A DNA stretch of 64,000 nucleotides from a phage: sequence record NC_101835.1; one strand, given 5' to 3'. The notes below the pieces were generated by a model. That model was not told where the DNA came from. It saw only the letters and a list, made by a program, of their open reading frames with translations, and did not search any database. Positions 31,576-35,360 of the stretch are shown here, one piece after another (positions within the stretch are counted from its first letter, which is position 1; each line of letters starts with the position of its first letter). Made by a program: the position numbers and the translations under genes.

Positions 31576-31929
31576 TTAGTGACAATCACCCCAATTACGA
31601 CCACACAAGTATTCACCTGTGATCTGGAACGGGACTCCCATCATTTTAGAAGCTTGCCAGAAGCAATGTACCACCATTTCGCCCACAGGACTCCAGATAA
31701 GTTCAAGCTTTCCGTCATCGTTCAAGATAGGATCGTACACCGTGTTTCCGTTTCTGTCAACCACTTCGTTTCCGTTTTCATCCTTGCGTGCCTTTTTGTA
31801 CTTATGACCGTCGAACACATGAAGTTTGGCCTCCTGCTCTGCCTTAAATGCTTCCAATTCTTCAATTGTGTCGAAGGTGTACACAGTCTTATACTTAGGT
31901 GTGTCAGGGACCTGAAGTTGGTACTCATC
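31576..31929 (-). CDS. DNA polymerase (family A), C-terminal segment / putative exon 2
   Basis: Begins DEYQLQV (completes HDE motif C with the upstream exon) and ends ..CGRNWGDCH, like the C-terminal His of T7 gp5 / Pol I; no SD before it. Confidence 0.6.
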   Translation of the reverse strand, partial: DEYQLQVPDTPKYKTVYTFDTIEELEAFKAEQEAKLHVFDGHKYKKARKDENGNEVVDRNGNTVYDPILNDDGKLELIWSPVGEMVVHCFWQASKMMGVPFQITGEYLCGRNWGDCH

Positions 31930-32205
31930 CAATAGTTCAGGTAGGTCGTTAAGCTACCCCGCACCATTACGTGCATAGCCATACGTTTTCACGTAGGATC
32001 GGACCATCTCATATTCCTATGATAAGCAACCACAGGAATCCTCCCATTTCGACCGCACTTGCTGGTCTACTTCCTTTCGGAATGGCCTCTGAGCGTTCGC
32101 TCTTTTGAGCGCTTCGTTGCGGATTACCTTGCCATAAGGTTTAGGCTTCCCGCAGTTAAAGAGGTTATTCGACATAGATTACTCTATGAAGCCACAATGT
32201 TATTT
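31930..32205 (-). other. putative group I self-splicing intron in DNA polymerase gene
   Basis: 276 nt between ..YYH and DE..; 5-prime exon ends in U, intron ends in G; GUGG near intron start can pair with exon CCAU; P-like AACUGCGGGAAGCC and Q-like AAUCCGCAACG; GAAA-capped hairpins. Confidence 0.5.
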
Positions 32206-34629
32206 ATGGTAATAAATAATACGACGAACACCTTCATCGTACCACCCACGCTTCACCATTTGGTGGTGCATAAGTATCCCAACCAAGTCACACAGCGATG
32301 CACCACCATTCTGTTGATATGCATTAAGTAAAGAGTGTTTAGATCGGGTCCAGATGGCATGACCATCAAAAGAGTAGATAAACTTCTTACCCGTTGCTTC
32401 CCAGAATTTCTCCAGATCCTCTTTACGGCCCTTAAGACCAGGGTTGGCATCCCAAAGCGCATCGATTACCCTTTGTCCCAACTCTGGAGAGATGTCCAGC
32501 ATATCTGCAACTTTATCTTTTTGTGCCCCGTACATAACCCCATACGTGATAGGTTTACCGTCGTTACGGGACACCTCTCTACCTGCTACTTTTGTATATG
32601 CCTCAGCATTGTTTTGGTGTGCGTCCCCGTTACTTACAACATCGTAATACAGGCCGTTGTCGAACTCAAAGGCACCCCAAGCCCCGATAAGCTGCTCTAA
32701 GTTGGACCCGTCAATACCGATCTCAAAGTATCCCGGAGGAACACCCCACAGACTACGCATCTCTTTACCCATAACCACTTTAGGAGATGGTTTAGGCATG
32801 TTTGCACAAATACTGTGTTTCTGTCTGGAAGTGTTTGTTAATCCAGAGCTTTTAGCAGGAAGCTTATGGTCAATCTTCAAACGTGGGTGATTAAGAAGAC
32901 CAGTGTCAACCTTATCCTCCTTGATTGGATCAAGTACCGATCTGCGGTTTCGCAATGATAACCATAAGACGATATCTTTAGCCATCTCTCCGTTCAATTT
33001 TTCAAGATTCGGACACAGGTGTCCAAACGTATCTTTCAGTTGCGGAGAAGTAATAAGTGCCCTAGCTTTTCTACGTATTTTCCCGAATACTTCCTTTTTA
33101 ATCCTTTCGGAGTTAGGAAAGCTTCGGAACTTGTGCACTGTTGTCTGAAACTTAGCATCAGTTTTGTTCCAGAAGTTGATAATTAGGTCACAATACTCTG
33201 ACTCTAAAAGCTCGTCCATGTATGCATATACTCGTGCATCAACATCTGCATCAGGTAGAGCTTTCTTCTTGCTGTCTTTAGTTACATCCTTAGTTCTCCA
33301 CATTGTCGGAAGCCAACCAGCACTGATCAGGTATCGCTTAATGTCGTCCTGATTGCTGATTTTCATAGGTATCTTGCAGTCAGGCATTCGCTTCTGCTGC
33401 AGATCGCTTATTGCCTGATCCATCAGCTCTTTAGGCAAAGGTTGTGGTGTGGAGGTGCCCTTAATATAACCTCTCAAGAAATCAGCCATCTTGTCGGGGT
33501 CTTTGCAGCCCATCTCTTCACACCATTTTATCCCCATCTTACTGACATCTCCTGTGGAGGTAAATGCTCTCTTAGGCGGGGCTTTGAACTCTAGAGCGCT
33601 CATGTCTACAGGATAGCCAAGCTTATCTTTTAACCATTTCCAACCATTATTAGAGATTGTCCCGTCTTGGTTAAACGGCTTTTCAGGGAACTTGGGCCGC
33701 TGAGACATTGACAGCTCTTTTAAAGGCAGTTGTGGTTCAACACGATCAGCGATTTCTTTCATCCACGCATCGCAACGGTCACGTAAAGCAATAGCTCCAT
33801 CTATGTCGAAGTATACACCCTGACGGGCCTGCAGCTCCATCAGGAAGTGCTGCAGCATGCCTCGACGTAATGCGTTCTTCCAGGTGATCTTCTTGAACCC
33901 TTTCGGCTTCTCTTTGGCAGGATCGTACATAAAGTTCTGCATGTCAGATTTGCCGTAGAATACACCTTTTGATTCCGCTACCAGTTCTTTCCAGAGCAGC
34001 TCCTGGATGATAACGTCCTCAAATACACGATCCACATACTTCCACAACGGAAGATCGCGCCAGTCATCAATTTGAACTTTCTGGTTACCAAGGGCATAGC
34101 CCCATGCCATAAGGCCGTGGGGACCAACAGGCTGCATTTTCTTAGTAACCGGGTTGAATACAGCGTCCGGACAACCTTTTGGTAAAGGGCGATCAGGCCA
34201 CAAGATTCGGCTCATCGCCAACGTATCAAACAGGTTAACCTGGTGGTCGTTGATAGTCCCCATGCATTTAGGATCACGGAACATATCAAAATGAATACCG
34301 GATAATCTTTCCATCAGCATAAAGTCATAACTGTAGCAGTTATGGCAGTTCAAAGCTGTTGGTGACCAGTCGGAATTGCCTGTAAGCCAACCTTCCAACT
34401 CCGAAAAATCTGCTATGCGAACTTCAAAACCTTTATAAAGAGTTTTCTTTGCCAGAATGAAGTTCTTAGCCTTTTCTATATCCTCCTCGGAGTAGTGTGT
34501 GCGGTCATTTAGAGGAAGGAACAGCATAAAACGGTTCTTATTCAGCTCTTTAAACAGGCCGCAGTGATAATAAAGATCTGGATCTTCCAAAAGCCCTGAG
34601 GCCTCCAGATCGAAGCACCAATTACTCAT
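32200..34629 (-). CDS. DNA polymerase (family A, T7 gp5-like), N-terminal 808 aa / putative exon 1
   Basis: N-terminal FDLEASGL..HCG exonuclease motif like T7 gp5; motif A region IGIDGSNLEQL; motif B KPITYGVMYGAQ; ORF stops at ..RIIYYHK, i.e. at motif C. Confidence 0.85.
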   Translation of the reverse strand: MSNWCFDLEASGLLEDPDLYYHCGLFKELNKNRFMLFLPLNDRTHYSEEDIEKAKNFILAKKTLYKGFEVRIADFSELEGWLTGNSDWSPTALNCHNCYSYDFMLMERLSGIHFDMFRDPKCMGTINDHQVNLFDTLAMSRILWPDRPLPKGCPDAVFNPVTKKMQPVGPHGLMAWGYALGNQKVQIDDWRDLPLWKYVDRVFEDVIIQELLWKELVAESKGVFYGKSDMQNFMYDPAKEKPKGFKKITWKNALRRGMLQHFLMELQARQGVYFDIDGAIALRDRCDAWMKEIADRVEPQLPLKELSMSQRPKFPEKPFNQDGTISNNGWKWLKDKLGYPVDMSALEFKAPPKRAFTSTGDVSKMGIKWCEEMGCKDPDKMADFLRGYIKGTSTPQPLPKELMDQAISDLQQKRMPDCKIPMKISNQDDIKRYLISAGWLPTMWRTKDVTKDSKKKALPDADVDARVYAYMDELLESEYCDLIINFWNKTDAKFQTTVHKFRSFPNSERIKKEVFGKIRRKARALITSPQLKDTFGHLCPNLEKLNGEMAKDIVLWLSLRNRRSVLDPIKEDKVDTGLLNHPRLKIDHKLPAKSSGLTNTSRQKHSICANMPKPSPKVVMGKEMRSLWGVPPGYFEIGIDGSNLEQLIGAWGAFEFDNGLYYDVVSNGDAHQNNAEAYTKVAGREVSRNDGKPITYGVMYGAQKDKVADMLDISPELGQRVIDALWDANPGLKGRKEDLEKFWEATGKKFIYSFDGHAIWTRSKHSLLNAYQQNGGASLCDLVGILMHHQMVKRGWYDEGVRRIIYYHK

Positions 34630-35360
34630 ACTGTCTCCTCCTGTGTCTTCTCAGCATTCTTTCTTGCAGCTATTGCATCGTCCCTGTTCTTGAAATACCC
34701 AAGGCATTTCCTTTTACCATCTACATAAATTCTGGCTACCCATCTTTCATGGGTTTTATCCCAATTCACCCCTGAGCAACCGCTGGTGTTATTATACTGC
34801 ACGGCTCTTCCACTCTTGTGCGAAAAACCATTATCTTCGAAGAACTTTCTTGCCCACTCTGCCTCTTCAAAAGTTCTGTACTGGCCTAGCCAGACCCTTT
34901 CACCTACAGAGTCTGTGCCTTGAGCTACCCATGCCCCTCTTTCTTCAGAATAGTGCACCCCGACCCTGCCAGATTTGTTGTTGCTACGAGGTATCTTGCA
35001 ACTTTTCTTTTTGTTATCTGTAGGTTCGAGTAGTTGCAAATTTTGAATACTGTTGTCAGCCACACCACCTGTTTCCCTTATCTCCTTGATGTGGTCAACC
35101 TCATACCCTTCCGGTACAGGACCGTTAAACATTTCCCAGATTATAACGTGGGCACCTTTAGTGCAATGCTTTCCTAGACTAACCACAGGCCTGCCATCAG
35201 CATCTTGCCCCTTGTCAGCTCTGGAGCCTGCTGAAGTTTTAACATATCCTACACCGCTGCCTGCCAGAATGTCTATCTTCCAAAAAAGATTTTGACCGTC
35301 ATACTCCAATATTTCTGACCACAAGTGATTAGCTACACAGTGATCTCTGAACTCGTTCAT
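34626..35360 (-). CDS. HNH homing endonuclease with two AP2 domains
   Basis: HNH core GYEVDHIKEIRETGGVADNSIQNLQLL..N; AP2-like repeats SGRVGVHYSEERGAWVAQ and SGCSGVNWDKTHERWVARIYVDGKRKCLGYF; stop overlaps polymerase start. Confidence 0.75.
   Translation of the reverse strand: MNEFRDHCVANHLWSEILEYDGQNLFWKIDILAGSGVGYVKTSAGSRADKGQDADGRPVVSLGKHCTKGAHVIIWEMFNGPVPEGYEVDHIKEIRETGGVADNSIQNLQLLEPTDNKKKSCKIPRSNNKSGRVGVHYSEERGAWVAQGTDSVGERVWLGQYRTFEEAEWARKFFEDNGFSHKSGRAVQYNNTSGCSGVNWDKTHERWVARIYVDGKRKCLGYFKNRDDAIAARKNAEKTQEETV

Follow-up and report, generated by a model that had tools for sequence, protein, structure and literature searches.

Group I introns of this kind have reportedly been known at site 881 of Pol I since the work of Bonocora and Shub in 2004. 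The introns in the family A polymerase genes of the phages SPO1, SP82, Bastille and Pf-WMP3 are self-splicing group I introns associated with the HNH nicking endonucleases I-HmuI, I-HmuII, I-BasI and I-PfoP3I (PMC3428280). Their insertion point is Pol I site 674, which belongs to the fingers subdomain, in contrast to the intron considered here, which lies at the motif C site 881; the Pf-WMP3 intron is of subgroup IA2 (PMC3428280), to which the present intron also appears to belong. A closer parallel is offered by the T7-like phages PhiI and W31, whose introns are reported to lie in a family A polymerase gene at site 881 of E. coli Pol I and to belong to subgroup IA2 with P7.1 and P7.2 (PMC3428280); splicing of both is also reported in the literature. 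On that description they resemble our intron in the T7-type polymerase, in the subgroup and in the site, 881 corresponding to the motif C His (HDE), and the P6a location of the endonuclease ORF, where the family of our intron has one, is further common ground. However, these phages are podoviruses as against an rV5-like myovirus, and their introns carry an HNH ORF that our copy lacks; for these introns, represented by partial sequences (AY769989/AY769990), the likeness noted here is one of site and description.

Splicing at this very site has been demonstrated by RT-PCR and Sanger sequencing for the polymerase intron of Pectobacterium phage CB7 (CB7_51/CB7_49, with the HNH gene CB7_50 inside; PMC7344957). 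The ribozymes of CB7 and phiTE (Certrevirus, Vequintavirinae) are homologous to ours: within the core that they share, ours and that of phiTE have 76% identity, the CB7 intron is 95.7% identical to that of phiTE, and the CB7 insertion site is identical to the one described below (...IIYYH/DEYQLEV, UACCAU/AAGUAACAUUGUGGC). Unlike our copy, both have a large extension of P5 and house an HNH ORF within P6a, and their polymerase gene additionally contains another intron further upstream as well as a free-standing HNH gene; genus and host also differ.

The window analysed here is a 64-kb stretch of DNA from an rV5-like E. coli myophage of the genus Vequintavirus. On its minus strand, at 31576..34629, it encodes a T7-type family A polymerase whose motif C is interrupted between His808 and Asp809 by a 276-nt group I intron of the IA2 type (Table 1), which on the combined evidence presented below is very probably spliced. 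The ORF list contains an 809-aa ORF (32200..34629, minus strand) with, as the first-pass annotation had stated, the C-terminus ...RIIYYH-K-stop, followed by an ORF at 31576..31932 on the same strand that reads (UUG)DEYQLQV...NWGDCH. Joining the H of the former to the DE of the latter yields a 925-aa product, which is collinear with the polymerase of the intron-less homolog JES2013 and differs from it at 3 residues. The JES2013 gene, from a 98% identical relative, encodes one continuous 925-aa chain with the uninterrupted junction ...IIYYHDEYQLQV; ...RRIIYYHDEYQLQVPD. Because this intron-less allele has a continuous polymerase, both splice sites are fixed to the base, and the insert occupies exactly the 276 nt earlier proposed for it (31930-32205).

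When T7 gp5 was aligned to the joined polymerase (phmmer, E = 1.6e-13), the HDE at the junction fell on H653-D654-E655 of T7 (iiyyHDEyql in the phage polymerase, wvHDEiqv in T7). This bears out the earlier claim that the split lies exactly at motif C, between H653 and D654-E655, and that joining H to DE restores the motif with its catalytic Asp and Glu. Once the exons are joined, the Pfam DNA_pol_A match grows from 620-742 to 620-822; even then its score of 31.8 bits stays under the gathering cut-off of 34.3 because the polymerase is divergent.

Table 1. Features of the interrupted polymerase gene and of the predicted intron fold, in window coordinates
Feature	Coordinates	Strand	Basis
DNA polymerase exon 1, 808 codons, ends ...RRIIYYH, last base U32206	32206..34629	-	ORF list; collinear with uninterrupted JES2013 polymerase; Pfam DNA_pol_A match
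Group I intron, IA2-like, 276 nt, without endonuclease ORF	31930..32205	-	Rfam RF00028, 64.7 bits; missing from intron-less allele; covariation over 18 homologs
DNA polymerase exon 2, 117 codons + stop, DEYQLQV...NWGDCH	31576..31929	-	ORF list; JES2013 collinearity; T7 alignment across junction; lengthened Pfam match
P1: exon CCAU + intron AA (32204-32209) with internal guide UUGUGG (32192-32197), wobble U32206.G	32192..32209	-	6/6 pairs invariant in 18 homologs
P2 hairpin, CAUAG/CUAUG	32173..32188	-	Compensatory changes in 5/5 pairs
P3 5' strand CCUCUU, partner GGGAGG 32040-32045	32159..32164	-	Double changes in 3/6 pairs
P4-P5 domain: P4 UGCGGG/UCCGCA, P5 GCC/GGU, short P5a	32118..32154	-	Fold and covariation
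P6/P6a, ACG/CGC; CGCUC-AAAA-GAGCG; loop is HNH ORF site in relatives	32093..32117	-	Homolog comparison and covariation
P7 5' strand GGCCA, partner UGGUC 32002-32006; pseudoknot with P3; expected guanosine-binding helix	32083..32087	-	100% of cells paired, 2 pairs with double changes
P7.1 UUCC-GAAA-GGAA, GUA linker (32068-32070), P7.2 GACC(A)GC-AAGU-GCGGUC	32051..32082	-	Fold and covariation; IA2 criterion (PMC3428280)
P8 hairpin	32013..32039	-	Double changes in 7/11 pairs
P9 (GAAA tetraloop), P9.1 and P9.2 hairpins	31940..31995	-	Double changes in 10/15 pairs
Terminal (omega) G, 3' splice site	31930..31930	-	G invariant in all homologs

The match of the insert to a group I intron is far beyond chance. 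The Rfam model RF00028 passes its gathering threshold with 64.7 bits against 50 (E = 2.8e-15), spans the full model (1-253) at 31980..32215 on the minus strand, and is the sole gathering-level Rfam match in the whole window; the MFE z-score of the intron is -2.8. The splice-site features that had been read from the letters are all in place: exon 1 ends in UACCAU with its U at 32206, the insert ends in ...CUAUUG with its G at 31930, and the intron GUGG (32192-32195) pairs with the exon CCAU to form the U.G wobble of the 5' splice site. This wobble is invariant in 18 homologs, and with an intron that ends at G31930 the reading frame continues from one exon into the other. A P10 of 4 bp is possible between exon 2 GAUG and intron CAUU (32196-32199). 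G31980, where the Rfam match ends, was rejected as an alternative 3' splice site: splicing there would retain 50 nt between the exons and disrupt the reading frame, the junction given by the intron-less allele is 31930/31929, and the 50 nt correspond to the covarying P9.1 and P9.2.

Comparison of 18 homologous introns backs helices P1-P9.2 and the P3/P7 pseudoknot. Standard pairs occupy 97.4% of the pair cells and 41 of the 75 pairs show double (compensatory) changes, in a hand-curated alignment (ORFs and variable peripheral arms cut, N placeholders fixing the register) which, with the structure drawn on the window sequence, somewhat favours the proposed fold. It replaces an uncurated MAFFT alignment that mis-registered P4, P5 and P7.1 and was left out of the counts. 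None of 500 shuffles equalled the observed pairing, and slid controls reached 33-44%. Thus, the P3-P8 core has a covarying P3/P7 pseudoknot; within P4, pair 65/84 changes from G-C to U-A in 9 of the 18 sequences. P1, the omega G and P10 are all invariant, so covariation is no test of them, and the short P5a of our intron is without comparators among the homologs. The elements previously described as P-like and Q-like proved to be the two P4 strands (UGCGGG 32149-32154 and UCCGCA 32118-32123), and two GAAA tetraloop hairpins are indeed present, capping P7.1 and P9. Subgroup IA2 is recognised by two additional helices, P7.1 and P7.2, that lie between P7 and P3' and are connected by G-U-A (PMC3428280); the two candidate helices joined by GUA indicate this subgroup for our intron, with double changes in 4 of the 6 P7.2 pairs and a single informative pair in P7.1. 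Taken together, the covariance model, the base-exact splice sites and the covarying full fold identify a bona fide group I intron, as initially proposed.

We infer that this intron is spliced, as demonstrated for its CB7 homolog and as reported in the literature for PhiI and W31 at the same site. In the pre-mRNA, the intron guide would pair with the last bases of exon 1 (P1, with the U.G wobble), and an external guanosine at P7 would attack after U32206. The freed exon 1 would in turn attack after the terminal G31930, with P10 aligning the exons, and ligation of ...UAC CAU/GAU GAG... would give one mRNA for the 925-aa polymerase with the junction peptide ...IIYYHDEYQLQVPDTPK. Unspliced RNA would be expected to give only a truncated product, which ends in ...YYHK and is without the catalytic Asp-Glu.

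It is improbable that the intron, though real, is no longer self-sufficient and, having lost its ORF and had P5 and P7.1 trimmed, splices poorly or needs a host or phage protein cofactor, throttling polymerase output. Such a reading could draw on the window variant having smaller P5 and P7.1 arms than any other of the compared Vequintavirinae homologs (arms of this size or less occur only in the Vibrio phage copies) and an A.C at the P6 base where most homologs have G.U, and on references given in PMC11878797, by which the splicing of phage introns can vary with growth state and translation. However, the core helices are all intact, the Vibrio phage homologs are smaller still (253-254 nt) with P7.1 entirely absent, and over 20 lytic phages that were isolated independently carry the identical intron, each time within an essential gene.

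Fainter still is the prospect of a polymerase consisting of two separately translated chains, of 808+1 aa and about 117 aa, that assemble afterwards, with the insert a spacer or dead relic: this exception, allowed for by the first-pass annotation, accords with the in-frame stop two codons into the insert, the in-frame UUG (31930-31932) ahead of exon 2, the two 'DNA polymerase' CDSs annotated in several GenBank records, and the unspliced split phage genes cited in PMC7344957 (Aeh1 nrdA, split by mobE, and CB7_245), but the insert holds a complete group I core constrained by covariation, the split would part His from Asp-Glu inside a single catalytic motif, intron-less alleles encode one chain, exon 2 lacks a purine-rich Shine-Dalgarno sequence ahead of it (..GACCUACCUGAACUAUUG/GAUGAG), as had been noted, and the homologous CB7 intron at the same site is removed from the mRNA (PMC7344957).

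The intron is already known, in that identical copies exist in public genomes and an annotation of the gene as spliced is available; current understanding is unchanged by its finding here. Besides rV5, about 20 other genomes contain it with 100% identity; a 296-nt query across it is 100% identical in both rV5 (NC_011041) and the BASEL phage RudolfGeigy (MZ501102). The RudolfGeigy record gives the polymerase as a two-piece joined CDS over the same 3054-nt span as the window gene. The rV5 paper and RefSeq record instead describe a polymerase of 775 aa, alongside a further CDS called 'DNA polymerase' and two hypothetical ORFs that lie within the intron. The value of the present analysis hence lies in annotation: in the rV5 reference and many relatives the gene still appears as a truncated polymerase plus a second 'DNA polymerase' fragment, with spurious intron ORFs, where the correct annotation would be a single spliced 925-aa enzyme. 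It also contributes a well-documented copy without an ORF to an intron family found at the identical H/DE site in Vequintavirus, Seunavirus, Certrevirus, Avunavirus, Mydovirus, Vibrio, Pseudaeromonas and Pakpunavirus phages. More generally, the polymerase gene stands out as a hot spot of selfish elements, including HNH- or LAGLIDADG-carrying introns, an intein and free-standing HNH genes.

In relatives of the intron, either P6a holds an HNH ORF of 127-181 aa or P7.1 holds one of the LAGLIDADG type. The window copy has no homing endonuclease of its own, its only internal ORFs being of 52 aa and 86 aa. The former (32017..32175) had no match in a Pfam search, and both it and the latter (31722..31982) were rejected as genes as they overlap the ribozyme core or exon 2 out of frame. 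Since the HNH gene that relatives have in P6a is absent, this copy is predicted not to move independently. Close relatives are polymorphic for the presence of the intron at this one site, as expected of a homing intron: at least 35 Vequintavirus records have the uninterrupted junction, 23 have the ORF-less intron (at least 95% identity) and about 40 the HNH-containing form, and near-identical phages can be found in all three states.

Eight synonymous differences are clustered within 43 nt of the insertion site, and a free-standing HNH-AP2 gene (34626..35360) lies directly upstream of the polymerase. We consider it a speculative, rather unlikely scenario that the ORF-less intron is still mobile by 'collaborative homing' with a nuclease supplied in trans, in which case the cluster of differences would be a co-conversion or nuclease-immunity scar. 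The nuclease could then be the HNH protein of a sister intron in a co-infecting vequintavirus or the free-standing HNH-AP2 protein. A strict association of the intron with the upstream HNH-AP2 gene does not hold: JES2013 has the gene without the intron and rV5 the intron without the gene. Nor did the window intron arise from the FFH2/Mangalyan type simply by deletion of the HNH ORF, as the intron of JLBYU08 did; it differs in P5, P7.1 and P8 and is hence a separate or mosaic lineage.

In all probability, the 276-nt insert that interrupts the T7-type family A DNA polymerase gene of this phage is an ordinary group I intron that is self-spliced from the polymerase pre-mRNA. The arrangement read in the first-pass annotation from the sequence alone was recovered exactly: the upstream 809-aa ORF terminates in ...RIIYYH-K-stop, the 118-codon downstream ORF runs from (UUG)DEYQLQV to ...NWGDCH with no Shine-Dalgarno sequence upstream of exon 2, and the insert separates the His codon (CAU, last base U32206) from the Asp codon (GAU, from 31929). 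Its further proposals held equally: a U at the exon end, a G at the insert end, GUGG of the intron opposite CCAU of the exon, two GAAA tetraloops, and P-like and Q-like elements, AACUGCGGGAAGCC and AAUCCGCAACG, which include both P4 strands.

Features of the polymerase region, with positions in the window and, where available, in locus L001 or the spliced CDS
Feature	Window	Strand	Other coordinates
Upstream polymerase ORF	32200..34629	-	
Insert	32205..31930	-	
Downstream polymerase ORF	31576..31932	-	
RF00028 match	31980..32215	-	
Small ORF inside intron, 52 aa	32017..32175	-	L001 3541-3699
Small ORF overlapping intron	31722..31982	-	L001 3734-3994
Free-standing endonuclease ORF (HNH_3 + AP2, 244 aa)	34626..35360	-	
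Difference cluster	31896..31938 and 32206..32215		spliced CDS nt 2415-2457

The DNA of the intron-less relative JES2013 matches the window up to ...UAUUACCAU and restarts at the DE codons, its uninterrupted 925-aa polymerase reading ...RRIIYYHDEYQLQVPD across the junction; the spliced window exons form a 2778-nt CDS whose product differs from it at only three amino acids. The predicted restoration of motif C was likewise observed: the T7 DNA polymerase alignment spans the junction, placing HDE on H653-D654-E655, and exon joining lengthens the Pfam DNA_pol_A match from residues 620-742 to 620-822. The polymerase region of this Vequintavirus is 96-98% identical to those of FFH2, WalterGehring, rV5 and several 'Campylobacter phage' records. 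More than 12 such records (MG0656xx), which give C. jejuni as host, share 97-100% identity with rV5-like phages of E. coli over this region and are probably mislabelled or contaminating coliphages.

A covariance-model search identified the insert as a member of RF00028 (64.7 bits, gathering score 50; E = 2.8e-15; full model length), the sole Rfam family reaching its gathering score within the 64-kb window. The match falls 50 nt short of the true 3' end of the intron; this last stretch contributes the additional hairpins P9.1 and P9.2 and closes with UGAACUAUUG, including the terminal G. The insert has a minimum free energy z-score of -2.8, a P10 pairing is possible between CAUU of the intron and GAUG of exon 2, and P7.1 and P7.2 are linked by GUA, fitting the criterion for subgroup IA2 as quoted in PMC3428280.

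Homologous introns were gathered from 17 other phages, spanning five Vequintavirinae genera, three Vibrio myophages, the Pseudaeromonas phage KLEP7 and the Pseudomonas Pakpunavirus SPA01. All share the insertion site, between ...(Y/A)YH and DE..., with UACCAU abutting AAAUAA..UUGUGGC. Endonuclease ORFs and variable peripheral arms were removed from the alignment, with N placeholders holding the register, and the counted structure, drawn on the window sequence, comprised P1, P2, P3, P4, P5, P6, P6a, P7 (the pseudoknot), P7.1, P7.2, P8, P9, P9.1 and P9.2. In this curated alignment of 18 introns, one row of which supplied the structure, standard pairs fill 97.4% of 1165 cells and two-sided changes occur in 41 of the 75 pairs. 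None of 500 shuffles attained any of the five measures, and sliding the partners by 1-3 columns reduced pairing to only 33-44%. P1 and the splice-site nucleotides are invariant, and hence conserved rather than tested by covariation. At the P4/P6 junction (alignment columns 60, 88 and 124; window 32155, 32117 and 32093), the bases are C, A and C in the window and KLEP7 but U, G and U in the remaining 16 introns. This is a covariation from G.U to the isosteric A.C wobble, compatible with an additional pair in P4 or with the first pair of P6; a base triple is possibly formed there.

Splicing would proceed by guanosine attack after U32206, followed by attack of exon 1 after G31930, leaving a single mRNA that encodes a 925-aa polymerase whose HDE motif is uninterrupted. 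We infer splicing for the present phage. The homologous intron of Pectobacterium phage CB7 lies between CB7_51 and CB7_49, contains the HNH gene CB7_50, and shares both the site (...IIYYH followed by DEYQLEV) and the ribozyme; its removal has been shown by RT-PCR and Sanger sequencing (PMC7344957). That the two ORFs are instead translated separately into two polypeptides is very unlikely, since the ribozyme is complete and constrained, exon 2 has no upstream ribosome-binding site, and the break lies within a single catalytic motif.

The observation in the first-pass annotation is confirmed and its interpretation supported; however, an intron in this polymerase is already known. Copies with 100% identity to it occur in rV5 and about 20 further public genomes, and for RudolfGeigy the BASEL record already joins two pieces into one polymerase CDS over the same 3054-nt span. 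In the 2013 rV5 paper the polymerase is given as 775 aa long and introns are discussed for the terminase gene only, and the rV5 RefSeq still shows two 'DNA polymerase' CDSs. It also lists both small intron ORFs as hypothetical proteins (gp222 and gp221); these coincide with helices of the ribozyme and are almost certainly artefacts, a Pfam search of the 52-aa ORF finding no match. As summarised in PMC3428280, group I introns of type IA2 with an HNH gene in P6a were reported in 2004 from the T7-like phages PhiI and W31 at the His of HDE (Pol I site 881). Polymerase introns of the phages SPO1, Bastille and Pf-WMP3 occupy site 674.

In relatives, the P6a loop holds an HNH ORF of 127-181 aa; in the window, whose intron carries no endonuclease gene, P6a consists of a 5-bp stem capped by AAAA. 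Salmonella phage PVP-SE1 (locus L018, 659-1578) has the same backbone and site but a LAGLIDADG ORF in P7.1 in place of the HNH, so two different endonuclease genes have invaded one ribozyme family. Among near-identical Vequintavirus genomes, the site is uninterrupted in at least 35 records, holds the window-type ORF-less intron in 23 (at ≥95% identity), or holds an HNH-carrying intron, the pattern expected for a homing element and its derivatives. LR694610 and LR694611 (rV5_ev168 and rV5_ev158), named as derivatives of the intron-bearing rV5, have an uninterrupted junction, pointing to loss of the intron or to recombination with a phage that lacks it.

Of 63 nucleotide differences between the spliced window CDS and JES2013, eight, all synonymous, lie within 43 nt of the junction (clustering permutation P = 0.0012). 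This cluster may reflect co-conversion of the flanking exon or immunity of the target site to the nuclease. The exon 2 start of the window is of the HNH-intron type; that of JLBYU08, which carries an ORF-less derivative of the HNH intron, is of the intron-less type. Mobilisation of the ORF-less copy in trans is the sole question here with some novelty.

The free-standing endonuclease ORF sits between the primase/helicase and polymerase genes, its stop overlapping the polymerase start codon. It is missing in rV5 and RudolfGeigy and found in FFH2, WalterGehring and the intron-less JES2013, and is thus independent of the intron. The window polymerase lacks both a second intron and the 323-aa insert that, after residue 671 (window numbering), extends exon 1 of Escherichia phage Mangalyan (locus L002, 117-3515) to 1132 aa; with its CYSGDTQ start and ...VAVCGN end, that insert looks like an intein. 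In SSE121, phiTE, Av-05, 19-1-2 and CB7 (loci L014, L016, L017, L013 and L023), the exon just upstream of the intron is only about 117 aa, so their polymerase genes carry a second intron farther upstream; some records have two places matching the intron query. In Vibrio phage 1.161.O (locus L021, ~725-1623), a related intron interrupts the ribonucleotide reductase small-subunit gene: it differs from the window intron in 5' sequence and internal guide and shares about 80% identity with it in the 3' domain (P9-P9.2), indicating the same intron family in another gene.
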